A stretch of 64,000 bases of DNA from assembly GCA_951812955.1 (NCBI GenBank), contig OX638340.1, forward strand, positions 2,528,001-2,592,000, in the 5' to 3' direction. Shown here piece by piece: positions 889 through 50,940 of this stretch. Position 1 is the stretch's first letter. Each line of letters begins with the position of its first letter. A model generated the notes under the pieces. That model was given only the letters and a program-made list of their open reading frames with translations, did no database searches and was not told the DNA's origin. The translations under genes were made by a program, and so were the position numbers. The DNA comes from an uncultured Gemmatimonadota bacterium. Lineage in GTDB: Bacteria; JAAXHH01.

Positions 889-2452
<1,564 letters not shown>

Positions 2453-2536
2453 AGTTATTGAAACTCGAGGTCGACTTGTCCGGCGCACGATGTGCACGCT
2501 GTCATGTTTTTAAAGTTGGGGGGCCTGTAGTACTGG

Positions 2537-2613
<77 letters not shown>

Positions 2614-2623
2614 TTGAAAGCCG

Positions 2624-2696
2624 GGGGATATAGCTCAGCTGGGAGAGCGCCGGCTTTGCAAGCCGGAGGTCACCGGTTCGATCCCGGTTATCTCCA
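2624..2696 (+). tRNA. tRNA-Ala (anticodon TGC), CCA not encoded
   Basis: GGGGATATAGCTCAG...CTTTGCAAG anticodon loop...GGTTCGATCCCGGTTATCTCCA. The G3:U70 alanine identity pair is present. Confidence 0.95.
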
Positions 2697-2800
2697 CTGG
2701 GCACAGCAGACGAGTACAGGTGCCCGCTCTTTGACAATTACATAGGAATGACGGGAACGGCGTTGTAACATCGGAGCACTCAAGCACAGTAGCATTTTTT

Positions 2801-5868
<3,068 letters not shown>

Positions 5869-5921
5869 TGCTCCAATTTATGTCGTCGTTCTCTCATTCC
5901 ATGTAATTGCCAACCCATTTC

Positions 5922-6039
5922 TTCCGGTGGCGATAGCGGAGGGGAAACACCTCTTCCCATTCCGAACAGAGTAGTTAAGCCCTCTTGCGCCGATGGTACT
6001 GCTTGGGTGACCTTGTGGGAGAGTAGGACGCTGCCGGGG
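5922..6039 (+). rRNA. rrf: 5S ribosomal RNA
   Basis: ...CCCATTCCGAACAGAGTAGTTAAGC...GCCGATGGTACTG...GGGAGAGTAGGACGCTGCCGG, with terminal helix pairing. Ends are approximate. Confidence 0.85.
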
Positions 6040-6084: not shown

Positions 6085-6147
6085 GGGGCTAATGAAAGCT
6101 TTAGATCGCTAGCGTAGTCTGGTTGTCTGGCCAGGTCCGGTCGTCGT

Positions 6148-6822
6148 TTACGCGGCGGTGTTTACAATGCGTCCGTCGAAGAGGCGGATGATCCGGTGGG
6201 CGTGATCGGCCAGAACCTGGTCGTGGGTCACCATGATGATGGTCGTGCCCGCCTCGTTGAGGCCGTTTAGCAGTTCCATGACCTCCGAGCCGTTGGCAGA
6301 ATCCAGGTTACCCGTCGGCTCATCCGCCAGGATCAGCTTGGGATTGCCGATGACCGCCCGCGCCACGGCTACGCGCTGTTGCTGGCCGCCGGAAAGCTGC
6401 TGCGGGAAGTGATTACGCCGGTGGGGGATCTGCATGTGGTCCATCGCCGCATCCACCCGTTCCTTGCGCTCCTGCTTGGACGTGCCCAGGTAGATCAGCG
6501 GAAGCTCGATGTTCTCGTAGACGGTCAGTTCGTCGATCAGGTTGAAGCTCTGGAACACGAAGCCGATGTTGTTCTTGCGCAGATTGGCTCTTTGCCGCTC
6601 GGAGTGGCCGGACACTTCCTGGTCCAGGAAATGGTATTCCCCGCCCGTAGGGTTGTCGAGAAGGCCGAGGATGTTGAGCAAGGTGGACTTGCCGCAACCC
6701 GACGGCCCCATGACCGCCACGAACTCGCCCTGGTCCACGGCCATGCTCACGTCGTTCAACGCCGTCGTCTCCACCTCTTCGGTCGCATAGAGTTTCTGCA
6801 AGTTGCTGGTCGCTATCATCAC
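6148..6822 (-). CDS. ABC transporter ATP-binding protein (MacB/LolD-like), cassette A
   Basis: Walker A GPSGCGKST, signature LSGGQQQRVAVARA, and Walker B LILADEPTGNLD. 224 aa. Confidence 0.9.
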   Translation of the reverse strand: MMIATSNLQKLYATEEVETTALNDVSMAVDQGEFVAVMGPSGCGKSTLLNILGLLDNPTGGEYHFLDQEVSGHSERQRANLRKNNIGFVFQSFNLIDELTVYENIELPLIYLGTSKQERKERVDAAMDHMQIPHRRNHFPQQLSGGQQQRVAVARAVIGNPKLILADEPTGNLDSANGSEVMELLNGLNEAGTTIIMVTHDQVLADHAHRIIRLFDGRIVNTAA

Positions 6823-7014
6823 ACACCCCTTTTGCAGTTTATCGGTATGCGTCGCACCTTAATCATTCGACTTGTGTGCGATGCGCATTGTTTCGTCGCG
6901 ATGTTGTGCATGCTTGTAAATGCTCTGCTTCACTAAGTGTTCGAGTGAGGGCGAAGGCGATTCGTGGAAGGCGGTGCTCCAGGATCAACGCTCTCAATAC
7001 TGAAGTGAAGAAGT

Positions 7015-7521
7015 TCAATCCGTACTATCCGGCAAATTCACTCCAAATTCCTTGATAAACCGCTCAAAGAAACCGGCCGACCTGTATTCCAACAGCACGT
7101 TTACAGGTTCTCCATCCATGCCCGATATGCCGAGCGGCTTTTCTCCCAAGAAAAATTCCAACCCAAGACTATCCACTTCCGGGTAACCGGATGACCGAAT
7201 AATCCACGCCGTGTCGACGACACCAGTTGCGTTCGAATGGACTCGAAGCAATACTTCTCCTTCGTTGATGAACTCGGGCGGAAGCGCTACGGTTAATGGC
7301 ATTAATGGTATTTCCCCATTTGAGCTCTCATCCTTGGAACGGAGAGTGTCTGATTGTCCTGTGCTATCCTGTTCCAGGTCGGTCATCGTCGTATCTATTA
7401 CAGTTTCGCCTTCCCGGTTCACATCGTCCTTTCCTTCACATGCCGTGTGACTCAGGATGAGGAAAAGCGACACCAGCGCGCATAGACTGATCACAGTCTT
7501 TTTTACCATTTGTTGAGTCAT
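7015..7521 (-). CDS. putative lipoprotein with a TonB_C-like C-terminal domain, cassette A
   Basis: Start chosen at MTQQMVKKTV because GGAGGA lies 9 nt upstream. Signal plus Cys (LILSHTAC). The C-terminus GEVLLRVHSNATGVVDTAWIIRSSGYPEVDSLGLEFF resembles the TonB C-terminal fold pattern. The listed ORF extends to 7632. Confidence 0.55.
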   Translation of the reverse strand: MTQQMVKKTVISLCALVSLFLILSHTACEGKDDVNREGETVIDTTMTDLEQDSTGQSDTLRSKDESSNGEIPLMPLTVALPPEFINEGEVLLRVHSNATGVVDTAWIIRSSGYPEVDSLGLEFFLGEKPLGISGMDGEPVNVLLEYRSAGFFERFIKEFGVNLPDSTD

Positions 7522-7651
7522 CGACCTTGATCCTCCAGATTGCGACGTTTCCAGTCTATCGGTGGAATACCGGTTGTCCCGCTCAGAATCCATGGTCTTC
7601 GACGTATTTGGCATCAGACCGTAGCCCGGCACCGGCCGGCGTCTATATCGT

Positions 7652-8540
7652 CTACCGGCCCGTCACTTCGATTCGATTCCGGATGCCACGCGTGTAAGTC
7701 AGATGCCCGCGTCGGTCAATCCAGATCCCTTCGACGTGAGGCAAATCATCCAGTAACCGCTTTGAATTCTCGACTCCCATGACGTACGTCGCAGTCGCCA
7801 GGGCGTCCGCCGTCATGGCGTCCGGGGCGATGACCGTGGCGCTGAGCACGTGGTTCGATGAAACCCCCAGCCGTGGATTGAGAATGTGAGCGATACGAGG
7901 GCCCTGGTGCAGTCTATAGTTCTCATAGTCTCCTGCCTTCGCAATGGCCTCGTCTTCGAGTTCGACCATGGCGCATAGTGCATCCATCCGAGCGGTATGG
8001 TGAACGTATCCCGATGCGCCACAGGCGAGTAAGCTCGAGCCATCACAGGGCAAAGATGTCTCCTCCGGCCGAAACCAGGCCACATCGGACCCGGTGGTCC
8101 CGCAACGCCCCGACCGCCCGATCCACCATCTTGCCGATCTCCCTGATCCCGCCATCGGCTTCGAGGGCGACGAGCAATCGAACGTTGTTGCACACGGGAC
8201 AACGAAGATCCTCCTGTACCTCGTAAACGTACCCTACAGGATCGCCCTGTTCACCGAAAATCACGTAGCGGTCATATTCCCGAAAGTCCTCGTGCTTCCG
8301 GGATTCGGCCATGTGGAACGTAACCGAAACAAACTCCGAAACTGTCGGTTCATCGAGCGGTGGAAACAGGTTGGACATGCCGGCTAGCTCGTTTGACATC
8401 CTGTAAAGCGACGGGTCGGATCCGACTACATCGGTTCCGCCGGATCCCATGAGATAGATGAGATTCACGGCCACGACTACGGTGCCTGCTCCGGCGATCA
8501 ACACCACCGCCATTCGACTACGTTTCAAAAACTGCGCCAT
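7652..8540 (-). pseudogene. deletion-fused remnant: N-terminal part of the FMN_bind membrane protein joined to the C-terminal part of the ApbE flavin transferase, with an in-frame TGA and a frameshift
   Basis: Aligned by eye to intact cassette B genes. Residues 1-~131 match the FMN_bind protein up to ...CPVCNNVRLLVALEADGGI. It then switches to ApbE-like GKMVDRAVGALRDHRVRCGLVSAGGDIFAL. A TGA at 8043-8045 aligns with a Gly codon. The same frame continues WLELTRLWRIGIRSPY. A +1 shift near 7980 leads into LCAMVELEDEAIAKAGDYENY...ADALATATYVMG (ORF 7652..8155). Confidence 0.8.
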
Positions 8541-8582
8541 AGGTAAGTCACCCGAATGGACGTCTGAAGAACGTCGGAAACG

Positions 8583-11027
8583 CTACTCGTACCTCAACGC
8601 TTCAACAGGATTCGACCGCGCCGCTTTGAGGACGTGTAGGCCGACCGTGGAGGCCGCTACGGCAAGAATGGCCAGGCCCACCAGGACAAAGAGCGCCGGG
8701 TTGGGCGCAATGCGATAGGCGAAGTCACGCAGCCAACTTTCCATGACGAGGTAGGCGATCGGCCAGGCGATGACGCTCCCCGCAATGGCCATGATCACGA
8801 ACTCTTTCGACAGAAGCTGTACAAGTTGCGCCCTGGTCGCCCCCAAAATCTTGCGAACGCCGATTTCCTTCGTTCGCTGGTGCACGGTGAGGGAGACCAG
8901 GTTGAATAGCCCCAGGAAGGTCAGCACAATGGCAAGCAACGCGCATATTCCGAGGAGCGTGCCAAGGCGTTCTTCAGCCAAATACAGCTGGTCTATATCG
9001 TCTTCGAGAAAGGAATAGACGAGCGGGATTTCCGGGTAATGGGATCTCCAGACGCTATTGAGGTCCTCGAGCGCGGAGGCCGTACTCCCAGGTTGCAGTC
9101 GAACGCTCATGTGTTCGCCAAAGGAACTGCTTAAGAATACCATGGGCTCGACGGGCTGGTAAAGAGAACGAAAGTGGGTGTCTTGAATCACGCCGACGGC
9201 TCTGCCGCGCTGGACGTACTGCGGTAAGACGATTTCGATCGTCTTGTCCAGGGCCACTTCAGCGGAACTCCATCCCAGATGCCGGACGGCCGTTTCATTC
9301 AGGACTACCTCGAATACGGCGAACGGATTGAACATCCTCATATCTCTTGGCTTCAGATTCGAGCCCAGCACCAGGCTTATGTCCAGGGTCTCGAAAAAGT
9401 CGTGCTCCACGTTCACTATGCGGATAGACGAGGATACCGGCATATCGCTGTCGTCCCCGCGTCGAACCATGGTTTCCCCGATCATGCCCCTCCCCGGCGC
9501 GAGCCCGGGAACGTAATCCGACAGGGAGACGCCCTCGATGTACGGTGACCGCAGCAACTCGTTCTGGAATCCATCGGAGGATCTAGGATTAAACTGTTGG
9601 GAGCCTTCAGAAGAGCTTGATTCAATGGCCTCCACGAAGAATCCCGATATGAGGGGAACGACTATCACATTGGATTTTTCGAAGCCCGGAGGTTCGTTCA
9701 TCATGAACCGCAACTGGCTGTAGACCACACCCGTGCCGATGATCAGGATGGCGGAAAGGGCGAACTGGACCGTGATAAGAATACGCTTCACAAAGGGATA
9801 GTCGATCGCCTGGCTCAACCGGCGGCTAAGTGCGTCCATCGGCCGGTATCCAGACAGAACCATGGCCGGAAAACTCCCCGAGAATGCCCCCACGAGGACT
9901 GAAATGGCGATCAGACCAAGCCATATGTCGAGGTGTTGTATAAAACCCATGGACAGTGCCTTCCCAGTCACGGCGTTGAAGGCTGGAAGCGAAAGCCGGG
10001 CAAGCAGAACCGCCAGGACGAGTACCAGGCCTGAGATCATTACGGACCCGCTCAGATACTGCACGACAATACGTGAACGGTTCGCGCCGTACACTTTCAT
10101 TAGGCCCACTTCCTTCGCGCGGGCTGTCGACTGAACCATAGACAGATTGATGAAGTTGATGCAGGCGATCAGCAGCAGGAAAACGGCCCCCGTCATGAGG
10201 GTGTAGAGATAGGCCACACTGCTGTTCGCCTCGAGTTCGTTGAGTAGATTGGAACGCAGGTGAATCGCGGTCAGCGGTTGAAGGGAAAACCGGTAGTCCC
10301 GGATGCTCTCCCGGTTCACGGGCTTGATCTCGGTGTCGAAGTAAGCCTGGAACTTGGACGTCAGTTCCGGCACCAGGCTCTGATCGTGCAAACGCAGGTA
10401 CGTATAGTAGGTTGCGCTCCACCAGTTGTCCATGAACTGCAATTCCGTTCCGAAAGACAGGAACATGTCCGCGGTGAAATGCGTATGGCCCGGGAAGTCC
10501 TCCATGACGCCCGTGATGGTAAAGCTGTACGTGTTGTCCAGGCGCATCACCTCGCCCATGGGGTCCACTTCGCCGAAGTACTTCCTTGCCATCGATTCCG
10601 AGATGACCGCTTTGTTCTGCCCCTCCAATGCGGTGGCGGGATTCCCCTTGAGCAGGGGGATGGTGAAAACGTCGAATAGCGAAGGCTCGGTCCAGTAGAC
10701 CCGGTCTTCGTAGAACTCCCGGTCACCGAACCGTATAAGCCAAATGGCCCGAGTCGCCCGCATGCGGACAGCGCTTGCTACTTCCGGAAAGTTCTGTTTC
10801 AGCGTGGAAGCCGCTGCGCCCGGCGTGCGCGCGTTGTTGCCATTGATCAGCCGATAGACCTGCGGAGCGTACCTGTGGTGTGTATCGTAGGTCCATTCGT
10901 CCTTTATGTACAATAGCGTGAGTACGCACGCGGCCATGGCGATGGCCAGCCCCGTGACGTTGATGGTCGTATGGGATCTTTGCTTGAGCAGGGCTCTGAC
11001 GGCTATTCTGAGGTGGTGGGTGAACAT
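8583..11027 (-). CDS. MacB/FtsX-type ABC transporter permease (double FtsX module with large periplasmic domains), cassette A
   Basis: ~815 aa and roughly 57% identical (hand count over the first 100 aligned residues) to ORF 14447..16864. The C-terminal ...NPVEALRYE and TM/periplasmic-domain/3-TM pattern occur twice. Start set at MFTHHL (11027; GGGAG upstream; aligns with the paralog N-terminus). The ORF also opens at 11057. Confidence 0.85.
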   Translation of the reverse strand: MFTHHLRIAVRALLKQRSHTTINVTGLAIAMAACVLTLLYIKDEWTYDTHHRYAPQVYRLINGNNARTPGAAASTLKQNFPEVASAVRMRATRAIWLIRFGDREFYEDRVYWTEPSLFDVFTIPLLKGNPATALEGQNKAVISESMARKYFGEVDPMGEVMRLDNTYSFTITGVMEDFPGHTHFTADMFLSFGTELQFMDNWWSATYYTYLRLHDQSLVPELTSKFQAYFDTEIKPVNRESIRDYRFSLQPLTAIHLRSNLLNELEANSSVAYLYTLMTGAVFLLLIACINFINLSMVQSTARAKEVGLMKVYGANRSRIVVQYLSGSVMISGLVLVLAVLLARLSLPAFNAVTGKALSMGFIQHLDIWLGLIAISVLVGAFSGSFPAMVLSGYRPMDALSRRLSQAIDYPFVKRILITVQFALSAILIIGTGVVYSQLRFMMNEPPGFEKSNVIVVPLISGFFVEAIESSSSEGSQQFNPRSSDGFQNELLRSPYIEGVSLSDYVPGLAPGRGMIGETMVRRGDDSDMPVSSSIRIVNVEHDFFETLDISLVLGSNLKPRDMRMFNPFAVFEVVLNETAVRHLGWSSAEVALDKTIEIVLPQYVQRGRAVGVIQDTHFRSLYQPVEPMVFLSSSFGEHMSVRLQPGSTASALEDLNSVWRSHYPEIPLVYSFLEDDIDQLYLAEERLGTLLGICALLAIVLTFLGLFNLVSLTVHQRTKEIGVRKILGATRAQLVQLLSKEFVIMAIAGSVIAWPIAYLVMESWLRDFAYRIAPNPALFVLVGLAILAVAASTVGLHVLKAARSNPVEALRYE

Positions 11028-11040
11028 GATCGGGTGCTCC

Positions 11041-13503
11041 CTACGGTTCCAGGACAAGAAAGTTGACCGACTTGAAGACGCGCTGATCAGCGTGCCGGTC
11101 CGTCAGCGTCACGGTCAGCACATACTCCCCGGCTTCGAGATCCGTGGTGTCCATCGCGGTGTATTCAGCCTCTTCCGCTGAACTCCCCTCGCCTTCGAAG
11201 AAGGACATCACAGTCTGCATGTCGTCCGGCCTTCTGGCCCTGCGGTTCCTCAGTGCGGGCATGCCCAGGGGCGTGATTTCGTAAAGTGTCTCGTAGGAAG
11301 TGCGTCCGGCGTTGCCTAAATCCAGGTTGTACAATTCGTAGTAAACGTAAACGGGGTTTCCCCGAATGTAGAGCCGTCCCGGATTGGGCGTGATATTCAA
11401 CCCCTTGCGCACAAAGGGGCCCTGTACGCCTGACGGCGTGATGAGGGTGGCCAGCTTGAGATCGCTGATGAGCAGGTCGCGGCCGCGGTAGTCGGACAGC
11501 GTGACTGGCTTGCGATACACTCCGACCCGGCTCGTTGTCTCGTCCCGCACCTGGACTGCCAGCGTGAAACTACCCGACGGCGCGACAACGCTTTCAGGCA
11601 GGGTATACACCGGAACTTTCACGTTGCTTTCAGCCATCATACGCTTCGGCCTGTCGAAGGGACCGAAACCGAACTCGTGGGTGAACTGGGGGCTCATGGT
11701 CGAATCACGCAGGGTGACCAGGTGCGCGAGCCGGGTGCTGTTACCCCTGCCGTCCGAGACATCGCCGAACTGCCACACGGGGATGCTGTAGGACAGGTCC
11801 AGTTCCGTCGCGCCGTTGTCAGCCCTGTAGCTTACGGCGTCGAAGGCATATTCGAGTGGTTCTCCCCCGAAGTCGTGCAGGAATTCCTCGGGACTGCGCT
11901 TGATCAGGTTCTCGGCAACTCGTTGAGGATGATGGGTATCGTTTCGACGCATCAACTCGAAACCCGTGATGTCACCAAACGAATCCCCACCTTCATAGAT
12001 TGTCTGAAGTGGATAATCGAATTTCCCACCGCCCATCTGGTCCACGAAAAACAGTTCAAGATTATGCTGTACGTAAACCCAGCTTTCGACCTTGTACGAT
12101 TCTCCGACCAGACGTTTGAGTAACTCGAATGGATTGCTCTCCGACGAGCTCCCCCAGAGATCCACCGATCCCAAATCGAATCCCTGGAGCTGCATGATCT
12201 CCTCATCCAACAACGCCACCGGATCTCCCCTGCCCACCCGCAACACGTAGCCGGACTGCATATTCCGCACGCGTATTGCGTCCACGGCAGGAATCGCCGA
12301 CGGCTTGAAAACGGAAAAGGTGTTCCCATGCCTGCGCAGCAAGAAGTTGCTACGGTCATCCGGCGTACCGTATCGAACGTGAATCTCCCCGCGGCGGTCA
12401 AAGGGATACTGGCCCTCTGAGAAATGATTGCGGGCGTACAGTACGCGCCGGTAGTGTTCCACCAGGCGCTCGTTTTCGACGGTGGCCGGATTGGAATCCC
12501 GTGCGTTCCAGAAGGTCTGCCACAGCGCGTCGCGTTCCGGTCCTTCCACAGCCTCCCAGGTCTTCAATTCATCGGGAGGCGCGACATGTCGCAGGTCCCG
12601 GTACACCGCCTGCTCATCGGGATCGAGACCCGATATATAGGTCTCCAGGGCTTCCTGCAATCGATCGAACCCCCGTTCAGTCGAACCCGAAAGCATGCTG
12701 AACTGAAGCTGCAGGGTCCTGACCTCGTCCGCGACGGCATCTCCTGATTCTTCGACCAACTGTCCCAGGAGTTCAGCACCTATTTCGAACGCTTCGGCAC
12801 GAAGACACACATTGGTAAACCGCTCGAAGGCCCGACGGTGTTTGGGGTTTACCCGGTACTGGTTGAAATAGGCGGCTATCGCTTTTTCGTAGTCCGGCAA
12901 CGGGGGACTTTCATAACATCGTCCCAGTTGATAGTAGGCGTCCTCATGGGATGGATTCAGCTCTACGACCTTGAGGAAATACGTCCTGCCATCCCGGTCG
13001 CTGCCCACGATGGTATCTACTTTTTTATCATTCATGAAGGACATGCCCAGGTAGTACTGGGCGTCCGCGTTGTCCGGATCCAGGCGGATCGCGGTACGCA
13101 ACGCGTTGCGGGCATCCAGCTTTCTGTTTTGCAACTTCAGGTAGGTCTTCCCCAATCCGATGTGACCAGGCGCCCATTTTTTGTCCTGCCGCACTGCGCT
13201 CCTGAACGAACTCAACGCCTCACGGTAGTCGCCCAATTCATACCGCGCCATTCCGAGCCAGTAGTGGGCGGGCGCCGAATCCCCGTCAGCCTTGACGGCC
13301 ATTAGGAAGTACGGCAGCGCTTCCGCGTATCGTCCCTGTTGGTAAAGTGATTTGCCTTTTTCGTGGGCTGGCAGATCAATATCGGATACGGCCGATTGCG
13401 GCGGGGAAGTCCAGGTCTGGGAATGGCCGGGTAAACTCAGTGCAAGCGCGGCGATTGTAAGAAGCAGGCGGACGTACACGTAGTGCCTCTTTGGACGAAT
13501 CAA
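11041..13503 (-). CDS. secreted TPR-repeat protein with a GWxTD-like domain
   Basis: Signal peptide, multiple TPR-like repeats (AxxYxxLGxxY patterns), then ...LWQTFWNARDSNPATVENERLVEHYRRVLYARNHF...FDRRGEIHVRYGTPDD. This resembles the GWxTD domain family, but the motif position reads YPFDRRG. Confidence 0.55.
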   Translation of the reverse strand: MIRPKRHYVYVRLLLTIAALALSLPGHSQTWTSPPQSAVSDIDLPAHEKGKSLYQQGRYAEALPYFLMAVKADGDSAPAHYWLGMARYELGDYREALSSFRSAVRQDKKWAPGHIGLGKTYLKLQNRKLDARNALRTAIRLDPDNADAQYYLGMSFMNDKKVDTIVGSDRDGRTYFLKVVELNPSHEDAYYQLGRCYESPPLPDYEKAIAAYFNQYRVNPKHRRAFERFTNVCLRAEAFEIGAELLGQLVEESGDAVADEVRTLQLQFSMLSGSTERGFDRLQEALETYISGLDPDEQAVYRDLRHVAPPDELKTWEAVEGPERDALWQTFWNARDSNPATVENERLVEHYRRVLYARNHFSEGQYPFDRRGEIHVRYGTPDDRSNFLLRRHGNTFSVFKPSAIPAVDAIRVRNMQSGYVLRVGRGDPVALLDEEIMQLQGFDLGSVDLWGSSSESNPFELLKRLVGESYKVESWVYVQHNLELFFVDQMGGGKFDYPLQTIYEGGDSFGDITGFELMRRNDTHHPQRVAENLIKRSPEEFLHDFGGEPLEYAFDAVSYRADNGATELDLSYSIPVWQFGDVSDGRGNSTRLAHLVTLRDSTMSPQFTHEFGFGPFDRPKRMMAESNVKVPVYTLPESVVAPSGSFTLAVQVRDETTSRVGVYRKPVTLSDYRGRDLLISDLKLATLITPSGVQGPFVRKGLNITPNPGRLYIRGNPVYVYYELYNLDLGNAGRTSYETLYEITPLGMPALRNRRARRPDDMQTVMSFFEGEGSSAEEAEYTAMDTTDLEAGEYVLTVTLTDRHADQRVFKSVNFLVLEP

Positions 13504-13625
13504 GAAGTGGCATTGACGATTCGCGTTACCGAATCAAGGGGAGTTGCTTTCAAGGTATCCAATAGACCAGGAATCAACAACCGTCTATGCGACGCAGTTC
13601 CACAAGGTATCCCCATAGGTCGCGC

Positions 13626-14297
13626 TTACGCGGCCTCCGTCACGATCCGTCCGTCGAAGAGCCTGATGGTCCGGTGGGCGTGGTCGGCCAGCGCCTGGTC
13701 GTGGGTCACCATGATGATGGTCGTGCCCGCCTCGTTGAGGCCGTTGAGCAGTTCCATCACCTCGGCGCCGTTGGCCGAGTCCAGGTTACCCGTCGGCTCG
13801 TCCGCCAGGATCAGCCTGGGGTTGCCGATGACCGCCCGCGCCACGGCCACGCGCTGCTGCTGGCCGCCGGATAGCTGCTGCGGGAAGTGGTTCCGGCGGT
13901 GGGGGATCTGCATGTGCTCCATCGCCGCGTCCACCCGTTCCTTGCGCTCCTGCTTCGACGTGCCCAGGTAGATCAGCGGCAGTTCGATGTTCTCGTACAC
14001 GGTCAGCTCATCGATCAGGTTGAAGCTCTGGAAGACGAAGCCTATGTTGGCCTTGCGCAGGTTGGCGCGCTGCCGCTCGGAGTGGCCGGACACTTCCTGG
14101 TCCAGGAAATGGTACTCCCCGCCCGATGGATTGTCGAGGAGACCGAGGATGTTGAGCAGGGTGGACTTGCCGCAGCCCGAGGGTCCCATGACCGCCACGA
14201 ACTCGCCTTCGTCCACGGCCATGGTCACATCGTTCAGCGCCGTCGTCTCTACCTCTTCGGTCGCGTAGAGTTTCTTGAGATGTTCTGTCCTGATCAT
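13626..14297 (-). CDS. ABC transporter ATP-binding protein (MacB/LolD-like), cassette B
   Basis: ~92% amino-acid identity (about 18 differences counted by eye over 223 aa) to ORF 6148..6822, with the same Walker and signature motifs. Start set at MIRTEHLKKLY (14297) by alignment. The listed ORF extends to 14450. Confidence 0.9.
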   Translation of the reverse strand: MIRTEHLKKLYATEEVETTALNDVTMAVDEGEFVAVMGPSGCGKSTLLNILGLLDNPSGGEYHFLDQEVSGHSERQRANLRKANIGFVFQSFNLIDELTVYENIELPLIYLGTSKQERKERVDAAMEHMQIPHRRNHFPQQLSGGQQQRVAVARAVIGNPRLILADEPTGNLDSANGAEVMELLNGLNEAGTTIIMVTHDQALADHAHRTIRLFDGRIVTEAA

Positions 14298-14446
14298 GGT
14301 GCGCTCCCGTAGTGTGGTAATACTCCGTATCCACGCATGCCATTTCGGAATCGTTCCTAATATCAAAGTAGCAAATGAAGAGGGTTGCAATTCCAGGTCG
14401 GAGAGATTAACTCCATAGATTGTGCGACTACGTTCATGCTGGAGAA

Positions 14447-16864: not shown

Positions 16865-17284
16865 AACTGGCCTACAGATACTTAGTAAATGGTTCTAAGA
16901 GGGTTGTGATTAACGTCGAAGGGGCAGTTGAAAGTCTATAACTGCCTGTACGTTTAAACTCGTCCTCCGGTTTGATCAGCCCCAGACGTTCGCCGAGTGT
17001 TTTGGACTCGTCCACCACTGGCATTCAGCGAGGAGAGCATTTCCGTTGTCGGTGCGTGGAGCGTCGTTTGTTTTTTAACCTTGATGAATTCAATACCCAG
17101 ACGAAGTCGGTCAATCAACTCTTCCAACTGCTTGATTTGAATAGGCTAATAGAGGAAGTCACGGCGAAGGCTTCACTGGCAATATCGCGACTTTGATTCA
17201 GGTAGTTAATGTTGTCGTACGCATCTTAGTCTCCATGTGCGCTGTCAGGTTGGGTCTGTGACGGATTTTGTGTTACTGACTTTA

Positions 17285-17500
17285 TCATGTTAAGGGCACT
17301 TTGTCTTCGTACATGATGATGAACTTGCTGGTGGCGGCCGTCCAGTTGGCGATGGGCCGTGTCTACCTTCGGGCCAGGTAGAGCAGTTTCCTGGCTACCC
17401 CGTCGGTGGGGAAGGCGCCGCCGCGCTATGGTCACCCCCAGTCTGCATGAGCACGTTCACCGCCCGTTACAATTCTGCTTCACATTGCATGGCGGCCAGC
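17285..17500 (-). mobile_element. decayed C-terminal relic of an IS256 (Mutator)-family transposase
   Basis: My own reverse-strand translation gives ...IVTGGERAHADWG*P*RGGAFPTDGVARKLLYLARR*TRPIANWTAATSKFIIMYEDKVPLT**. The block FP(T/S/N)D..A.KLLYLA...NW..A...F.I.F.D is the conserved C-terminal signature of IS256-family transposases. Several in-frame stops are present and no N-terminal part was found. Confidence 0.6.
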
Positions 17501-17707
17501 AATAGACTGGCAAAAGACGGTCAAAGGACAGGCGTAAACTTGTCGCTCTGAGTGCTATCCTTTACATAAACCTCTTCGACTCAGTCGTCTTCCACGGCTT
17601 CTTTATTCAGTCGACGTTTTCATCAAGCCCTTTAGATCCTCGTCGGTCTGTCTTGAAGCTACCGTGTATTTAACACCGCTCCCTTGTCATGAAGTACGAC
17701 CCACTCG

Positions 17708-18709
17708 TTAATTGACAATCTGCAATCTATTCTGGATCCCTCTTGTAAAAATAAACTGTCCATGCTGATCAATCCAGATCCCCTCGACGTATGGCATATC
17801 GTTCAGCAATCTCTGAGAACTTTCGATACCCATAACATAAGTCGCTGTGGCAAGCGCATCCGCTATCATTGCGTCGGGAGCGATAATCGTGGCGCTATGC
17901 ACGTGATCCGTCGAAGTCCCAAGTCGAGGATTGAGTATGTGTGTAATACGGCGACCTTGATTGATTTTGTAGTTTTCATAACCACCCGACGTCGCAACCG
18001 CCTCATCTTCGATTTCGACTGTGGCGCACAATGTATTGGGATGGTATGGAGACCGGATACCAATACGCCAAAGACGTTCAGGTTCTGGCCTTCCCATGGC
18101 AAGAACATCCCCACCTGCAGATATCAACCCGCATCTAATGTGGCGGTTTCGTAATACGTGAGCCATTCGATCCAATCCGTAACCTTTTGCTATTCCGCCA
18201 AAGTCTACCCCATAACCAGACGAAGCAATTCGTACTTTCTGTTCTTGCACTTGCAACTGATTAAAGTCTACCAGTTCGAGCATTTGCCGTAAGCTTCGAC
18301 TTGACGGATCACAATTATAAAATCCCCAGTGGTACATAATCGGTAGAATTGTCACATCGAAGGCACCATCTGTAATCTCGCCGATTCGTCTTGCTGTAGT
18401 CGCGACCTTGATAAAGTGGGGTGTTACGCCATGCCAAAGCCCATACATGTTGTTTACATGCGTAAGTTCACTGGTATTACGATAGAGGCTTAGCAGGCTG
18501 TCAATTTGAGCTAAAGCATCGAAGGCATCATAAATTGATTCTTTACTGTACTCGCATTCCTTGATTACAAGTTCTACTTTCGTCCCCATATGAATCTGAT
18601 GACGACGAACAAGCCTTTGCTTGTCTGACAATCCTGCGCCAAAATTGTATGGCACAAGTAACATTGCCGATGAAAGGCCGACCGATTTTATGAAATTGCG
18701 TCGCTTCAT
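17708..18709 (-). CDS. apbE: FAD:protein FMN transferase (ApbE family) with a Tat-type signal
   Basis: The N-terminus MKRRNFIKSVGLSS is twin-arginine-like. Also ...DFGGIAKGYGLDRMA...ISAGGDVLAMG...WRIGIRSP...ATSGGYENY...HILNPRLG...PDAMIADALATA, the typical ApbE motif series. Confidence 0.85.
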   Translation of the reverse strand: MKRRNFIKSVGLSSAMLLVPYNFGAGLSDKQRLVRRHQIHMGTKVELVIKECEYSKESIYDAFDALAQIDSLLSLYRNTSELTHVNNMYGLWHGVTPHFIKVATTARRIGEITDGAFDVTILPIMYHWGFYNCDPSSRSLRQMLELVDFNQLQVQEQKVRIASSGYGVDFGGIAKGYGLDRMAHVLRNRHIRCGLISAGGDVLAMGRPEPERLWRIGIRSPYHPNTLCATVEIEDEAVATSGGYENYKINQGRRITHILNPRLGTSTDHVHSATIIAPDAMIADALATATYVMGIESSQRLLNDMPYVEGIWIDQHGQFIFTRGIQNRLQIVN

Positions 18710-18778
18710 AGGGGCTATGCTATGATGGAATCTAGGACCATCTTTGTTTTCAAAAACAAGGCTACGTACAGAAAGCCC

Positions 18779-19378
18779 CTAACCTCGATGGATATGCCTA
18801 AGTCTATTGAGAGCATCAACAATATGAATCGAGCTTTTGGTAGCACCTGTGATTCCGTCGATATTTTCGCCTAATACGTAGAAATGTAGGTTCGGTTTCG
18901 ACTTAAATTGCCTCAGAAACCTCGTTTCATCCTCAACAGATAGTGGTTCACCGGAGAGTTCAAGGGGTTCAAGCACTCTGATATCATGGAGCCGACCCAA
19001 GTCATCGAGTGCGACGAGCATTCGGACGTTATTGCAAACAGGACATTTGAGATCCTCCTGTATTTCGTAGACGTAGCCAACAGTGTCGATTCGTTCGTCA
19101 AACACCACATATCGATCGTAACCTCTGAATTTCTCGTGTTTGCTAGAATAGCTTTCAGAGAAAGCGGATATAGTGAATTCCCTTAAGATACGATCGTCAA
19201 GTGGTGGGAATATGTCGGATGAAGTAATCGAACCACTTCCCGATCCCAAGTTCGACACGTGTGAGTAAATCACATCGTCATCACATGAATGTCCGGATAA
19301 GTAGACTATATTGACCACAGCAATTACTACTCCGGTTATAAGAAACATGGTTCTTTGAATGAGTTTGAAATTTCGCAT
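18779..19378 (-). CDS. membrane-anchored FMN_bind-domain protein with a predicted flavinylation site
   Basis: Start set at MRNFKLIQ (19378) by alignment with the cassette A homolog. One N-terminal TM helix. GYVYEIQEDLKCPVCNNVRMLVALD core. DGITGAT at 18839-18859 matches the Dxx(S/T)GA(T/S) ApbE acceptor motif known from NqrC/RnfG. Confidence 0.7.
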   Translation of the reverse strand: MRNFKLIQRTMFLITGVVIAVVNIVYLSGHSCDDDVIYSHVSNLGSGSGSITSSDIFPPLDDRILREFTISAFSESYSSKHEKFRGYDRYVVFDERIDTVGYVYEIQEDLKCPVCNNVRMLVALDDLGRLHDIRVLEPLELSGEPLSVEDETRFLRQFKSKPNLHFYVLGENIDGITGATKSSIHIVDALNRLRHIHRG

Positions 19379-19515
19379 ACTACAACCGAACTCCATCTTC
19401 GTTTGAGCAGAAGAGGCCGAAGTTTGACTGGTTGTTCCTTGGGAGCCACGACATAGATTTGGGATTTCACTGACTGAACAGAATGTTGAGTTGAGGGGAG
19501 GCCGAGCCAATACAC

Positions 19516-19932
19516 TTATCTAAGGCGGAAGCTCATTGGAAAGTAGAATTGCGCAGATATAGGCTTTCCTTCCTTAGTCGCTGGCTTGAAAATCATCATT
19601 CGTGCTTGCGACAGTGCAAGACTATCTAGTTCTGGATGGGTCGACGATTCTATGATCGAAACAGATTCCACCGTGCCATCTGCCTTAGATCTTAAGAGAA
19701 GTACAACATCGCCTTCATTGCTGTACTTATCCTGTGGCGTGGGTCTAAACAATAGTCGTGGAGACGTATCCCAATCACCCACTTTAGCTATAACTTCAGT
19801 GTCAACTTGGGTTTCTTCCACCGGCACACTATCGTTCTCTACATTTCTGTCGTTACTGCAGGAGATGACTAACGAAAAGAGTACAATCTGGGACAGGCTG
19901 AATCGAAGCATTTGTGGAGCCCTTTCTGTCAT
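19516..19932 (-). CDS. lipoprotein with a TonB_C-like domain, cassette B
   Basis: Lipobox LVISC. The C-terminus GDVVLLLRSKADGTVESVSIIESSTHPELDSLALSQARMMIFKPATKEGKPI fits the TonB C-terminal pattern. Confidence 0.6.
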   Translation of the reverse strand: MTERAPQMLRFSLSQIVLFSLVISCSNDRNVENDSVPVEETQVDTEVIAKVGDWDTSPRLLFRPTPQDKYSNEGDVVLLLRSKADGTVESVSIIESSTHPELDSLALSQARMMIFKPATKEGKPISAQFYFPMSFRLR

Positions 19933-20022
19933 ATGAGGTCGATTTCTGAACGCGAGGTAAATTCTGATTCATGTTCTAACTTTCAATGTGATTCAAAATC
20001 ACCAGTATAAGTTAAAACCTGA

Positions 20023-21735
20023 TCAATCGGGGCTATTGACCCGAGAAGTAAATCGAAAATTGTATTTAAATATCGTATTTTGGGGGACGATGAGTCGTGT
20101 TCCCATAGTGGGCATTAAACGAAACCTGCCTACAGACTCTAAGGCGATACTATCCAGTGCCGGATGTGCTGATGGTGTCTTTGTCCAAATCGAATCTACG
20201 ATACCATTTGAGTCGAAAAGTACGTTCACTGCAATTTCCATTTCGTCAAGATGACCGTACTCAAGAGGGAATGCACGACTCGTAGCCGTACCGAGGTGCA
20301 AGATTAGAGGTTCTTCATACGATGGCACAACATAGTCGTCAATGATCCCGTCGGTCACTAGTCGAATGTATTGGTCATATCCTTCCAAGGATCGCCAGGA
20401 ATCATCTTTTGTGAATCTGGCGATACTCTGTGCAAAAGATGTAAAAGGGAGGTCACCGATACGGCGAGGATGGGACATCATGTTGACGGATTGATTGTTG
20501 GCGTACGATCTGATAAAAAGACTCGATTCATCTATCGGCATGGAAGACACGTTATCGAAGTATCGTGTGAAAGTTGACCGGTCCGACCCGTTGGAATCAT
20601 GGGCTTCGGTGGACGGCATGTTAGTGAAGTATTGAGAGATATCAAATCGGTCTGACCCGCTGGATGCCTGCACTTCGCGATAGGTAGTTGTAGTCAGATA
20701 GTACTCCACATTTGAAACGTAGAATACGGAAATGGTCGCATCATGAGACCGGACGTAGTCTGATATACCACGCAAGGCTGTTTCACCGGCGAAATCACCT
20801 ACGACTGGAACGATCAAGTTCCTCCCGTGCAACTTCTTGACGACGTCAAATGCACTATCATCAGCAAGGAAGTTGGCTTGCTCCCCACTTATCGTTTCTG
20901 CAAGAATCAACTCCCGCAGACTCGGGAAATTAAAGGTTGCATCCCCCGGTGTTCCCAGATCGTACTGGATGTCTAACTGGCTCCTGAAGAAAGCCTGATA
21001 GACTCGTTCGACAGCTTTCATATCTTCCATCGAGTCTATGCCATACGAATGTAAATGGGACTTGATGACCCGGAGATTTCGCTCGTAGAGTTTTACATCG
21101 GGATCTATTCCGTCGAAATATGCGATCAGCGTTGCAACAGATGATTCACTTCGAGACCAGGGCCGGACCGGTCCTCCCTTAAATATCTCGGCCAGGTAGG
21201 AGAGATTCCGGTTCAATGGTTTGCTGAGCAGCCTAGACAGGAATTCAGCACTGTCGCTGGACTGAGCGAAGAGGGACTTGTAGATCAGGTGCAACAGCAT
21301 GTTATCGCGACGAATGTCAACCACGAAAGCCATGTGCGGCCTGGTCTCGGCGATGTAGGTAAAATTCTGTTCGGGGCCGACACCCACATAAACGCCACCG
21401 GAAACGTGCCGTTCGCGTAGTACGGCAAATGGATGCAGGTAAGAAGATTCGTTTGAGGTGAAATTGGTTGAATGAAAGGAGCCACCCGTCTCCGACAGTT
21501 CTCTAATCAGGTTCGAGAAGGCTGGCGTGGACAGTGAGTCCGGGAGGGCACCTGCTCTTGGATATGGCTTTACAGTCCTCTTGTTAGACCAATCAGAAGG
21601 ATTGTAACACTGGACTGCAAACAACATCACGACAACACCTGCCGTTATCCATGTTGTTGTTTTCCATATAACCATATCCGAGGATTTCCAAGCAGCTAAA
21701 GATTGACCTAAGTATTGTGAAAGTCTCTCAGCCAC
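20023..21735 (-). CDS. N-terminally anchored protein: unrecognised ~400-aa central domain plus a TonB_C-like C-terminus
   Basis: One TM helix (WITAGVVVMLFAV). The central region with GVGPEQNFTYIAETRPHMAFVVDIRRDN...HLIYKSLF could not be assigned to a named family. The C-terminus IAVNVLFDSNGIVDSIWTKTPSAHPALDSIALESVGRFRLMP is TonB_C-like. Confidence 0.5.
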   Translation of the reverse strand: MAERLSQYLGQSLAAWKSSDMVIWKTTTWITAGVVVMLFAVQCYNPSDWSNKRTVKPYPRAGALPDSLSTPAFSNLIRELSETGGSFHSTNFTSNESSYLHPFAVLRERHVSGGVYVGVGPEQNFTYIAETRPHMAFVVDIRRDNMLLHLIYKSLFAQSSDSAEFLSRLLSKPLNRNLSYLAEIFKGGPVRPWSRSESSVATLIAYFDGIDPDVKLYERNLRVIKSHLHSYGIDSMEDMKAVERVYQAFFRSQLDIQYDLGTPGDATFNFPSLRELILAETISGEQANFLADDSAFDVVKKLHGRNLIVPVVGDFAGETALRGISDYVRSHDATISVFYVSNVEYYLTTTTYREVQASSGSDRFDISQYFTNMPSTEAHDSNGSDRSTFTRYFDNVSSMPIDESSLFIRSYANNQSVNMMSHPRRIGDLPFTSFAQSIARFTKDDSWRSLEGYDQYIRLVTDGIIDDYVVPSYEEPLILHLGTATSRAFPLEYGHLDEMEIAVNVLFDSNGIVDSIWTKTPSAHPALDSIALESVGRFRLMPTMGTRLIVPQNTIFKYNFRFTSRVNSPD

Positions 21736-21771
21736 TTCTTTTGACTAAGAGACTCTCACGCCGGATCAGCC

Positions 21772-23055
21772 CTAACAACTTCTACCACCATTACAGTAAC
21801 AACCTACATAGCCCCACACATATGCATCCCCACAGTCATCATAATAACTACAATATACGCGATGGGCCAGGACCGCATAGGCAAAGGAGAAGGGCAACGC
21901 GCACTGCAACCCCACGTGGACGATTCGATCGAGCATCCAGACTATCACGGGTAGGGCTGGACCGGATGCCGGAACCAGACCCCAAGAGGACAGGAGCGTG
22001 CCGGGTTTCGTGATTGTCCACATCGGCGCGAGGATGAGGGCCAGGATGAATCCGGCCTCGATAATCTGGAGGCGTATGCGCTGTTGCTGGCTCGCCACGA
22101 AACGCTGGGCAATCAGTAGGCATCCTGTTAAGATAACAACGAGGAGAGGAAACATTGGAACGGGAATGGGCTCAACTATGCGGACGACGAACTGCGCAAT
22201 CTCATTATTCCAACCATGGGTGATGCTCAGTAAGTAGATCGAATGTAAGACTATCCACACAAAGAGAGGCGTCAGGATGAACAATGCTTTTTTTCGTAAC
22301 CATTCTCCAAAGACAGACGAACTTGGAAAAACAGTTAATATCTGAAAGATAAGAACAGTTTCCAGGATTGTTGCTAATACGACGATGTATATACTGAGCG
22401 ATAGTAACCAAACCGGCCATCCTGCGATCATGGGATGAAAGGCAGGAGACGATGTGAGCGCCGTAGCGAGGAAGAGCAACGCGCATCGAAAGGCGATGAC
22501 GTTTAGATGACTGCGGAATCCCATCCAAGTACCAAAACCTAACAGCACGATCGGGAAGATCAGAAAGGGTCCTCTTTGGAACCAGGTCATCTCCGCGACA
22601 CCCATCACAATCTCCTGCTGATCAACCTGTAGGGTGTAAGGTACCTCTTCGATCTCCTCAAGTGTCATGATACCGGTATGTATCCGATCTTCGCGAAGCC
22701 AGACGATTTCGATACGTTCTCCGGGTTGACTTTGCAAACGTGCCTGGAAATAGGCTTCTGGTCGTGATCTCAGGTCGATTCCATTTACCGATATGATCCG
22801 GTCGCCCGACTGTATTCCTGCCAGGTCGGCCGGACTTCCGTTCTCGATCTGTACTGCGATGATACCTTCGTCTTGGCGAATCCGGACGAGATGAAACCAC
22901 GTACCTTCCTGTAGATTGCTAACGGCGCTCTTCGTCAACCCCGGCGTTTGTATCATCTCGCTACCAAAAAATTGAATGCCGGGCGACCAGTGTTCGATCT
23001 GCGTGAATCGAACAAGTGTCCACGCCACCAGACCCAATTGCATGCATAGCAGCAA
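21772..23055 (-). CDS. PDZ-domain polytopic membrane protein with a Cys/Tyr/Gly-rich tail
   Basis: PDZ-like segment GIIAVQIENGSPADLAGIQSGDRIISVNGIDL, followed by ~8 hydrophobic helices. The tail is YCSYYDDCGDAYVWGYVGCYCNGGRSC. The TTG start is uncertain, because the frame is open 17 codons further upstream with no canonical start. Confidence 0.6.
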   Translation of the reverse strand: MLLCMQLGLVAWTLVRFTQIEHWSPGIQFFGSEMIQTPGLTKSAVSNLQEGTWFHLVRIRQDEGIIAVQIENGSPADLAGIQSGDRIISVNGIDLRSRPEAYFQARLQSQPGERIEIVWLREDRIHTGIMTLEEIEEVPYTLQVDQQEIVMGVAEMTWFQRGPFLIFPIVLLGFGTWMGFRSHLNVIAFRCALLFLATALTSSPAFHPMIAGWPVWLLSLSIYIVVLATILETVLIFQILTVFPSSSVFGEWLRKKALFILTPLFVWIVLHSIYLLSITHGWNNEIAQFVVRIVEPIPVPMFPLLVVILTGCLLIAQRFVASQQQRIRLQIIEAGFILALILAPMWTITKPGTLLSSWGLVPASGPALPVIVWMLDRIVHVGLQCALPFSFAYAVLAHRVYCSYYDDCGDAYVWGYVGCYCNGGRSC

Positions 23056-50073: not shown

Positions 50074-50346
50074 ATGCTGTACTATATGGGTTTGGGACTA
50101 GGCGTGGCCCTTGCTGTTTCCGTCGCCGCCATCGGCGCCGGCGTTGGACAGGGTATCGCCACCGGTCTGGCCTGCCAGGGCATTTCCCGTCAGCCCGAAG
50201 CCGCCGGCCGCATTCAGCTGGTGATGATCATCGGCCTGGCGTTCATGGAATCGCTGGCTATCTACGGCCTGCTGGTTTTCTTCATGCTCCAGGGCCGGTT
50301 GCCTTCATTCGAGCAGGTCATGCAACTGACTCAGGTCGGACAGTAG
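50074..50346 (+). CDS. atpE: F0F1 ATP synthase subunit c
   Basis: [30 protein letters not shown]...[19 protein letters not shown], with the conserved carboxylate in the FMESL helix. Confidence 0.9.
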
Positions 50347-50931: not shown

Positions 50932-50940
50932 CGGGGAACC

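Follow-up and report, generated by a model that had tools for sequence, protein, structure and literature searches.

Two kinds of described system come closest to the one reported here. In MacB-type transport, the accepted route for the heat-stable enterotoxin STII leads through Sec, then DsbA and then MacAB-TolC (PMC5985334). In extracytosolic flavinylation, a 2021 survey (Meheust et al. 2021, PMC8238504) includes 'hybrid thioredoxin-flavinylation' clusters, in which ApbE is encoded with a flavinylated DUF3570-family protein located outside the cytosol, a thioredoxin-like protein and a small DUF4266-family protein that is secreted and bears a Cys motif; its text makes no mention of ABC, MacB or FtsX, and the accessible part of its supplement lists one MacB/FtsX-type permease, classed just as 'OTHER'. 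Here we analyse a locus that joins the two. It lies at positions 6148-23055 of a 64,000-nucleotide stretch of DNA (the window) from an uncultured Gemmatimonadota bacterium (GTDB lineage JAAXHH01; assembly GCA_951812955.1, contig OX638340.1, positions 2,528,001 to 2,592,000), in which two gene cassettes, A and B, place a MacB-type permease and its ATPase beside genes for an ApbE flavin transferase and an FMN_bind flavoprotein. An earlier reading of this DNA (the original prediction) knew of no described system that unites these parts, and neither our full-text literature searches, which returned nothing relevant, nor the text of the survey contains the combination. The locus would be a putative peptide-exporting MacB-type system joined to an ApbE-dependent extracytosolic redox module; both kinds are known, and we do not regard it as categorically new.

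Relatives of the locus carry the main evidence. A scan of 185,579 species genomes recovered six loci, and contig look-ups brought the set to 11 distinct related loci (numbered with an L below), all of them in Candidatus Latescibacterota or metagenome-assembled genomes (MAGs). The permease, FMN_bind and ApbE genes are kept together in 11 of these 11, so their adjacency in the window is not coincidental, and the pattern supports the view that the flavin module and the transporter work together. Two gene orders occur, A-type and B-type, which share ~55% identity and match cassettes A and B. Cassette B has its intact counterpart in L001 and cassette A in L007, where the genes are those for DUF7790, TonB_C, TPR/GWxTD, permease, FMN_bind and ApbE, then a homologue of the small gene at 7015-7632, then the ATPase. 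Read in order, the intact locus comprises a PDZ sensor kinase with LuxR-type regulators, a TlpA/ResA-like CxxC protein, one or two peptide precursors, a DUF7790 protein, sometimes a TonB_C lipoprotein, the permease, FMN_bind, ApbE, sometimes a membrane-fusion protein (MFP, the periplasmic adaptor), the ATPase and often a TPR/GWxTD protein. Between cassette B and L001 the ratio of nonsynonymous to synonymous substitution rates (dN/dS) is 0.09-0.38: cassette B genes have been under purifying selection since the two split. Such a gene set probably folds and exports disulfide-rich peptides. We see the arguments as about evenly balanced on the fuller proposal that the window holds tandem decayed copies of a peptide-maturation and export locus, in which a Sec-delivered peptide would be matured by a flavin/thioredoxin disulfide relay and released by MacB-type export. 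The coupling of transporter and flavinylation in the original prediction is upheld by these loci; the TonB_C proteins that it had counted as a third partner are accessory, the thioredoxin-like and peptide genes could not be seen because they are deleted in the window, and the MFP, kinase and regulator genes had escaped it.

The peptide precursors and the thioredoxin-like protein are the most telling of these additions. Upstream of DUF7790, every locus that reaches that far carries the thioredoxin-like gene, and tblastn finds a peptide match in all but L006, where a scan of open reading frames (ORFs) shows a 97-aa Cys-rich ORF at the peptide position. The precursors are one or two ORFs of 79-83 aa per locus; a profile of them matches 26 clusters across the whole database, and these lie on contigs that also carry the FMN_bind family. 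The N-terminal 41-45 residues of the precursors form a leader with a basic n-region, a hydrophobic segment and the motif W[DN]VPxIG[VI]xEAxA, followed by a variable core of 35-49 residues rich in aromatics. Among 28 peptides, mean pairwise identity is 0.61 in the leader versus 0.34 in the core. Cores contain six Cys (24 of 28) or eight (4 of 28), leaders none (26 of 28) or a single one (2 of 28), and 23 of 28 peptides end in a Cys; the invariably even count strongly suggests three or four disulfides per peptide. Pooled ratios of nonsynonymous to synonymous polymorphism (pN/pS) are 0.70 for the core and 0.33 for the leader in a small sample, and the core of one pair, L004 versus L005, reaches 1.85 on tiny counts, so that positive selection on the cores is only suggestive. 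Tandem duplication of the peptide gene is seen in L003 (4544-5453), which has a DUF7790 fragment between the copies, and in L004 (4708-5327).

A conserved leader and variable core beside processing and export genes give the relatives' loci the look of precursor loci for leader-peptide bacteriocins or for peptides made on ribosomes and modified after translation (RiPPs). The known RiPP machinery was not found: the Pfam hits of L001, L003, L015 and L016 include no C39, radical-SAM, LanM/LanB or YcaO family, and these loci show neither a double-glycine leader with a C39 peptidase exporter nor a known RiPP-modifying enzyme. A possible likeness to NVEALA-type small proteins was set aside, as Pfam gave no peptide hit and no literature was found with the term. 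The partner that the loci do encode is the thioredoxin-like protein, ~196-201 aa long and membrane-anchored, with a conserved CxxC and weak ResA/TlpA/MauD-type matches.

The second half of the predicted relay is the FMN_bind protein, whose cassette B copy combines a CPVC motif (inside DLRCPVCNNVR) with a DGITGATKSS flavinylation motif; both are invariant in 33 FMN_bind homologues. An AlphaFold model of moderate quality (predicted local distance difference test, pLDDT, 71.8) shows an N-terminal membrane helix and an RnfG/NqrC-like FMN_bind fold, with RnfG (7zc6_G, E = 5e-4) as its best structural match. The protein shares with RnfG and NqrC this helix, the fold and the [ST]GAT motif, but no other Rnf or Nqr subunit accompanies it here, and its invariant CxxC insert is absent from 105 longer FMN_bind hits. 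NCBIfam scores are ~20 bits against cutoffs of 102-230. Its homologues are few, just 39 clusters among 5.8 billion proteins, and in a profile search of 1.84 billion representatives the close family forms a single 50% cluster. That search also recovered ~20 further short single-domain representatives (50% clustering) with CxxCx[DN][VL]R ~65 residues upstream of [ST]GA[TS], a signature found in 0 of the 105 long FMN_bind hits.

Both parts of an ApbE system are present in cassette B, an ApbE with an export signal (its N-terminus, read from the translation, is the twin-arginine-like MKRRNFIK) and an FMN_bind protein with [S/T]GA[S/T]. Pfam searches covering the window cassettes and L001, L003, L015, L016, L023 and L024 gave no transmembrane electron-transfer partner of the NapH-, MsrQ-, PepSY-, DsbD- or Nqr/Rnf-like kinds. 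Compared with the DUF3570/DUF4266 clusters (PMC8238504), which encode the same four kinds of protein, the flavoprotein here is an FMN_bind protein with its own CxxC, DsbD is lacking, a MacB or RND pump is attached, and the small protein is variable with six to eight Cys where theirs is a conserved CXC protein.

The transporter belongs with the MacB type (type VII) in architecture. Each of the two permeases is a duplicated single chain of ~800 aa with two stretches of MacB_PCD (3e-34, 5e-29) and FtsX (2e-22, 6e-18); permease A is 84-86% identical to the permeases of L003-L009, and permease B is 86% identical to that of L001 (dN/dS 0.18). The nearest NCBIfam families of both ATPases are DarD, MacB, FtsE and LolD, the best match of ATPase A being DarD at 277 bits against a cutoff of 375. 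An intact 444-aa MFP, with Pfam HlyD_3 and a DarC-like NCBIfam match (172 bits, cutoff 450), is found only in L003, L015 and L016; the MFP is missing or decayed in the B-type loci and in L004-L007, L009 and L017. The window itself encodes permeases with cognate ATPases and has no intact adaptor; for an outer-membrane channel, OEP/TolC families are absent from the Pfam hits of L001, L003, L015 and L016 and from 30 other window ORFs, and such a channel could be encoded elsewhere.

Set against the described pumps, intact loci share with MacAB-TolC/STII and YknXYZ/SDP a MacB_PCD and FtsX permease, an ABC ATPase and an HlyD/YknX-type adaptor, and with MacAB-TolC/STII also a presumed substrate in the form of a small Sec-delivered peptide gaining periplasmic disulfides. 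Unlike MacAB-TolC, the system has a duplicated single-chain permease, a separate ATPase, no TolC-like gene in the locus and an MFP that is often lost, and folding would fall to a dedicated locus-encoded module rather than to housekeeping DsbA. No curated family scores higher than DarBCD and ADOP: the ATPase matches DarD best, the permease ADOP and after it DarB, and the MFP DarC. All these scores stay well below the cutoffs: permease A scores 284 bits and permease B 207 against ADOP TIGR03434 (cutoff 622), and 119 and 91 bits against DarB (cutoff 700). The permeases share the duplicated architecture, and the setting is likewise that of a peptide product, but the scores do not support membership of either family. 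Darobactin loci differ further in that no DarA-like precursor and no radical-SAM DarE is found here, the peptide being Sec-type and Cys-rich.

These parts suggest the following route. The precursor would reach the periplasm via Sec, where the TlpA-like protein would introduce or shuffle the three or four disulfides. The CxxC-FMN_bind protein, flavinylated by ApbE, would re-oxidise this carrier and hand the electrons to O2 or a quinone, acting as a flavin-linked thiol oxidase; because no NapH, MsrQ, PepSY, DsbD or Rnf-type membrane partner is found, an oxidase fits better than a reductase in need of electron input. The MacB-type transporter would take up the peptide, once folded, either from the periplasm or from the outer leaflet and, in loci that have an MFP, would use it and an unlinked outer-membrane channel to expel the peptide across the outer membrane in an STII-like manner. 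More speculatively, the periplasmic domain of the PDZ kinase may sense the C-terminus of the peptide.

Several points weigh against this route. Flavinylation, redox direction and the fate of the peptide are all read from sequence, and the FMN_bind model is of the moderate quality given above. TlpA/ResA-like proteins are usually reductants, not oxidants, and the Pfam hits of the cassettes and the six loci searched include neither an electron acceptor nor a donor partner. The MFP losses recur in many loci and no outer-membrane channel gene is seen in any; B-type genes have stayed under purifying selection without an MFP, so the permease may not be part of a tripartite exporter. In the Latescibacterota peptides, 14-16 residues separate the hydrophobic segment from the AxA site that follows it, an atypical spacing for signal peptidase I. 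No role is assigned to the DUF7790, TonB_C and GWxTD proteins. Finally, all close relatives form one narrow clade, in which part of the synteny reflects inheritance rather than selection, and the distant contexts examined are few, namely two.

The same observations favour the strongest rival, a mechanotransducer rather than an exporter, in which permease and ATPase would power or gate a periplasmic redox complex of the FMN_bind, thioredoxin-like and DUF7790 proteins, much as in FtsEX or LolCDE, and the small Cys-rich protein would be a redox-cycling or membrane-anchored subunit comparable to DUF4266 in the DsbD/DUF3570 clusters. Missing adaptors and channel genes, and purifying selection on B-type genes without an MFP, would be expected under it; the long spacer before AxA could mean that the N-terminal helix is retained as an anchor, and ApbE clusters that pair a thioredoxin-like protein with a small secreted CXC protein offer a precedent (PMC8238504). 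We nonetheless hold it to be unlikely. Highly variable cores in several copies per locus would be unusual for a fixed subunit, distant peptides carry canonical cleavable signal peptides, and an intact MFP in L003, L015 and L016, together with an RND pump and MFP in L023, argues for export.

The two distant contexts, L023 and L024, were reached through FMN_bind homologues of ~30-35% identity and help to separate core from accessory genes. L023 encodes a CxxC-FMN_bind protein, a Redoxin-family CxxC protein, a 67-aa 6-Cys protein, an NHL/DUF5128 beta-propeller, an ApbE disrupted by an insertion sequence (IS), an MFP and an RND pump. L024 encodes an extracytoplasmic function (ECF) sigma factor, a CxxC-FMN_bind protein, a Redoxin-family CxxC protein, a 68-aa six-Cys protein that has a signal, a propeller, a permease and a TPR protein; no ApbE was seen in this locus. 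The peptides of both loci have canonical cleavable signal peptides. The L024 permease is a 798-aa double MacB_PCD/FtsX protein, 30-32% identical to the window permeases. Since L023 has an RND pump with an MFP in its place, the conserved core is a CxxC-flavoprotein, a thioredoxin-fold protein, a secreted even-Cys peptide and an envelope pump, not MacB specifically, with the pump superfamily and the DUF7790 or propeller component interchangeable. The six-bladed NHL/DUF5128 propeller occupies in both loci the place of DUF7790 in the Latescibacterota loci. Both loci have been hit by IS elements.

A wider proposal is possible, if on the doubtful side: the CxxC-FMN_bind proteins, with at least ~20 clusters at 50% and a spread beyond this clade, may form a new class of ApbE-flavinylated extracytoplasmic thiol oxidases that, with the TlpA-like carrier, would provide a dedicated, DsbB/VKOR-independent relay for a hitherto unrecognised family of variable, Sec-secreted 6- or 8-Cys peptides released by MacB or RND pumps. 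Erv/ALR, Ero1 and QSOX with their PDI/DsbA-type carriers resemble it in proposed logic only, in which a flavin beside a CxxC would make disulfides that a thioredoxin-fold carrier hands on to a Cys-rich client, by analogy and not by membership. The modelled protein has its CxxC in an RnfG/NqrC-like FMN_bind fold, not an Erv helical bundle or other Erv/Ero1-type FAD fold, and its cofactor is predicted to be covalent phosphoester-linked FMN, not FAD.

Sensor kinases bear on a different reading of the locus. Intact kinases with response regulators are present in L001 and L015, and such flanking genes would also suit a system that senses and resists Cys-rich antimicrobial peptides, self- or host-made, through a BceAB/YknXYZ-like pump and sensor kinase, with the redox proteins inactivating the peptides or repairing damage. 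MacB-family pumps do protect against SDP (YknXYZ), bacitracin (BceAB) and possibly defensins (PMC5985334), and among named relatives the closest ones are host-associated or marine MAGs. Against this reading, the peptide is a product of the locus itself, with a leader conserved across the clade, and PADLOC and resistance families gave nothing beyond generic ABC ATPase similarity, a result that also led us to drop anti-phage defence as a candidate. Immunity would leave the ApbE/FMN_bind/thioredoxin module unexplained and might be an additional task of this pump; as the main function it seems to us a weaker candidate than mechanotransduction.

With the intact loci as a guide, the window reads as a decayed version of the system (Table 1). 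Cassettes A and B are paralogous, as the original prediction had it: by blastp, the permeases are 55.7% identical over 814 aa (E = 0), the ATPases 93% identical in amino acids and 90% in nucleotides, and the cassette A remnants of ApbE and FMN_bind are 53% (1e-53) and 50% (4e-35) identical to their cassette B counterparts. The ORF of ATPase B extends to 14450, and its probable start is at 14300; residues 52-274 align to ATPase A, and the L001 orthologue has 224 aa. Profile searches bore out the proposed ABC_tran, MacB_PCD/FtsX, ApbE, FMN_bind, PDZ and TPR/GWxTD assignments and one TonB_C domain, and left two TonB_C calls below threshold.

Table 1 Features of the two cassettes in the window, by position
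Feature	Position	Strand	Evidence and remarks
Cassette A	6148-13503	minus	GC ~0.57
ABC ATPase A (MacB/LolD/DarD-like)	6148-6822	minus	Pfam ABC_tran 5e-36
Small secreted protein or possible lipoprotein, cassette A	7015-7632	minus	Weak TonB_C-like stretch
FMN_bind-ApbE fusion pseudogene, cassette A	7652-8540 (ORFs 8043-8540, 7652-8155)	minus	blastp, Pfam
Duplicated MacB-type permease A (2x MacB_PCD + FtsX)	8583-11057	minus	Pfam
Secreted TPR/GWxTD protein	11041-13503	minus	Pfam TPR families; GWxTD TIGR04514 2.6e-13, above cutoff
Cassette B	13626-23055	minus	GC 0.44-0.51, except ATPase gene 0.61
ABC ATPase B	13626-14300	minus	Pfam ABC_tran 6e-35
Duplicated MacB-type permease B	14447-16864	minus	Pfam MacB_PCD + FtsX
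MFP (periplasmic adaptor) gene remnant	16865-17707	minus	tblastn fragments
ApbE flavin transferase	17708-18709	minus	Pfam ApbE 7e-72; dN/dS 0.14
Membrane-anchored FMN_bind protein (CPVC, DGITGATKSS)	18779-19378	minus	Pfam FMN_bind 23.3 bits, cutoff 22
TonB_C-domain lipoprotein	19516-19932	minus	Pfam TonB_C 1.4e-10; TIGR01352 6e-13
DUF7790 periplasmic protein	20023-21735	minus	DUF7790 2e-30; likely start 21675
Last 26 codons and stop of Cys-rich peptide precursor gene	21772-21852	minus	blastp
N-terminal ~400 aa (PDZ and membrane domain) of PDZ-HisKA_3 sensor kinase	21853-23055	minus	blastp; Pfam PDZ

Three lesions account for the state of the window copy. The first lies at the start of cassette B, where a "PDZ membrane protein" had been proposed; the PDZ domain is real, and the ORF is a truncated PDZ histidine kinase fused in frame to the end of a peptide gene. 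In blastp, residues 2-401 of this ORF (21772-23055) are 83% identical to residues 17-416 of the 888-aa kinase HK1 of L001, and residues 402-427 are 81% identical to residues 57-82 of the 82-aa L001 peptide (L001_82). Four independent assemblies are 99.4-99.8% identical to the window from 21858 to 13326 and all diverge exactly at 21858; they carry an intact 82-aa peptide gene and, upstream of it, a thioredoxin-like gene. In L001 this interval further holds two genes for LuxR-type regulators, a gene of 173 aa and the kinase domain. The intact interval in these loci points to one deletion in the window strain, which ran from the kinase membrane domain to codon ~56 of the peptide gene and removed the kinase half, the two LuxR-type regulators, the TlpA-like gene and most of the peptide gene. 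A six-frame profile search (hmmsearch) found no intact peptide or thioredoxin-like gene anywhere in the window, in which 21772-21852 is the sole peptide trace.

The second lesion is in the MFP gene. The segment between permease B and ApbE, previously taken for an IS relic, proved to be a decayed MFP gene: fragments at 16953-17015, 17011-17172 and 17440-17601 match residues 277-297, 224-278 and 105-158 of the L003 MFP (tblastn), with 51-62% identity to this 444-aa HlyD/YknX-type protein and a phmmer E value of 2.6e-8. The third is the cassette A flavin pair. By blastp, residues 18-135 of the FMN_bind remnant match 59-177 of the cassette B FMN_bind protein, residues 130-165 of the same remnant match 171-205 of the cassette B ApbE, and the ApbE remnant matches ApbE 178-332; Pfam places the latter at ApbE profile positions 180-265 only. 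On these alignments, a deletion fused FMN_bind codon ~133 to ApbE codon ~171, with a frameshift after the junction; the flavinylation motif and the first ~170 ApbE codons, about half of ApbE, are gone. Given the loss of peptide, TlpA-like, regulator and kinase genes, the MFP pseudogene and this fusion, the window system is probably nonfunctional as a producer.

Rearrangement extends beyond these lesions. The same-species locus L018 (GCA_001753035.1, MKWU01005730.1), compared with window 6092-11057, lacks the block from permease A to ATPase A and runs from ATPase B through the TPR gene straight into rRNA-proximal sequence; cassette A is therefore strain-variable. In L019, an IS (DDE_Tnp_1) lies upstream of the thioredoxin-like gene. 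On this evidence, the locus seems to be a hotspot of rearrangement. An exact look-up of permease A, for the tandem junction in other assemblies, found none on record, and a metagenome scan with it returned one 2.7-kb fragment.

Base composition had also been noted as very different between the cassettes, and it is: GC at third codon positions (GC3) is 0.43-0.56 in cassette B versus 0.67-0.84 in cassette A, with ATPase B (0.82) and the gene at 7015-7632 (0.54) as exceptions. Both ATPase genes have a high GC3 (0.82-0.84), although the other cassette B genes do not, and ATPases across all related loci are 93-96% identical in amino acids; similarity and GC3 together suggest gene conversion between paralogous loci or extreme constraint. 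Sharp GC shifts at ~14.4 kb and ~23.5 kb, and near-identical ATPase genes that could mislead an assembler, raise the question of whether the low-GC block is a chimeric join and the adjacency a coincidence or assembly artefact. That is already largely refuted and very improbable: the four assemblies reproduce the stretch from 21858 to 13326, L001 and other loci show the same GC pattern including the high-GC ATPase, the adjacency recurs in 11 loci, and a double-FtsX permease also stands beside the distant FMN_bind gene of L024. In L001, L003, L005, L007, L015, L016 and L018, the thioredoxin-like, peptide, DUF7790 and TonB_C genes have a GC of 0.38-0.51 in genomes of 0.60-0.66. Low GC is therefore a property of the locus and does not indicate that the block reached this genome recently; with the position next to EF-G also shared by L001, we rejected recent horizontal transfer together with chimeric assembly.

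The accessory genes include the TonB_C genes that the original prediction had stressed. Of its three TonB_C-like domains, that of 19516-19932 is bona fide; the gene at 7015-7632 has no Pfam hit, scores 22.1 bits for TIGR01352 (cutoff 27.1) and is 49% identical to TonBC_B over 39 aa, and the TonB_C-like extension at the DUF7790 C-terminus reaches 16 bits in Pfam (cutoff 24.6). The 7015-7632 product has an orthologue in L007, 88% identical and in the same position. TonB_C genes are absent from L003-L006 and L009, and because of this the TonB_C proteins are accessory and the emphasis placed on them is not supported. The statement that the window has no exbBD pair and no TonB-dependent receptor was borne out in the 30 other window ORFs scanned, and a true TonB system or a role in iron uptake was rejected, as no ExbBD, receptor or iron-transport families were found. 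The 138-aa protein of 19516-19932, with its lipobox-like VISC, resembles TonB in its domain and differs from TonB-ExbB-ExbD in a lipoprotein-type signal, the lack of a TonB anchor and Pro-rich linker (as read from the translation), the absence of ExbBD and receptor genes nearby and its dispensability in five related loci.

These genes matter for one further reading, envelope metal or iron redox, in which a flavin reductase, TonB_C proteins and a MacB pump would act as in ferri-siderophore reduction and PvdRT-OpmQ recycling, with the peptide as a metallophore. Flavinylated modules are repeatedly tied to the reduction of iron, and PepSY-like clusters can contain TonB-family genes (PMC8238504); the MacB-family pumps include PvdT (PMC5985334), and Cys-rich peptides could bind metal. 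We judge this reading improbable. No TonB-dependent receptor, ExbBD, VIT1, FTR1, P19 or PepSY is found in the window or annotated loci, the TonB_C proteins are missing from five loci and have no TonB-like anchor with Pro-rich linker, and a strictly even Cys count suits disulfides better than metal sites.

The DUF7790 protein (570 aa) has a methyltransferase-like Rossmann fold in a model of pLDDT 80.9. All inspected DUF7790 members carry signal peptides and are therefore periplasmic. The family has more than 3,400 hits; distant contexts are mixed, one beside an MFP and a MacB-type permease and two unrelated, and we dropped DUF7790 context as a functional clue for this reason. A distant homologue in L012/L013 belongs to another envelope cluster, which also encodes SpoIIM, a pair of M48 peptidases, a Yip1-like protein, an MFP and a single MacB-type permease, a further DUF7790-MacB-type link. 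The TPR/GWxTD gene looks like a hypervariable allele: its L018 counterpart (9503-11985) has 59% amino acid identity over residues 1-716 between flanks of 99.4-99.6% nucleotide identity, and across all loci it is 57-60% identical compared with 84-86% for the adjacent permease. Full-text searches found no literature on GWxTD. In L003-L006 and L009, just beyond the ApbE or ATPase gene, the opposite strand encodes a conserved 252-aa protein that lacks a Pfam hit and shows an internal pattern resembling a duplication.

The cassette region sits between a plus-strand rRNA operon (890-6039) and the EF-G gene (23615-25696), an adjacency to EF-G that recurs in L001, and every family-supported long ORF from 6148 to 23055 is on the minus strand. 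The remaining window, at ~60-67% GC, holds housekeeping genes for Opp-type ATPases, a Mur ligase, RuvB, QueA, IspD, ParAB and ATP synthase. Two long minus-strand ORFs without a Pfam hit, 50331-51590 and 51475-53397, overlap the plus-strand ATP synthase region and are probably spurious high-GC ORFs.

The window itself is a decaying, strain-variable copy, and its main value is as a pointer to the intact loci. If the proposed route holds, covalently flavinylated proteins of the periplasm would gain a role beyond respiration and iron reduction, that of generating disulfides, and the very large, mostly orphan group of duplicated MacB/ADOP-type permeases would gain a concrete substrate class. The distant loci show pumps of two superfamilies, MacB and RND, recruited to one redox-plus-peptide core, and the more tentative thiol oxidase class would amount to a bacterial analogue of Ero1/PDI coupled to machinery that exports toxins or signals. 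For the uncultivated marine or host-associated Latescibacterota, the loci would represent a new, fast-diversifying family of disulfide-rich peptides together with their processing genes, and these peptides may be antimicrobials or signals.

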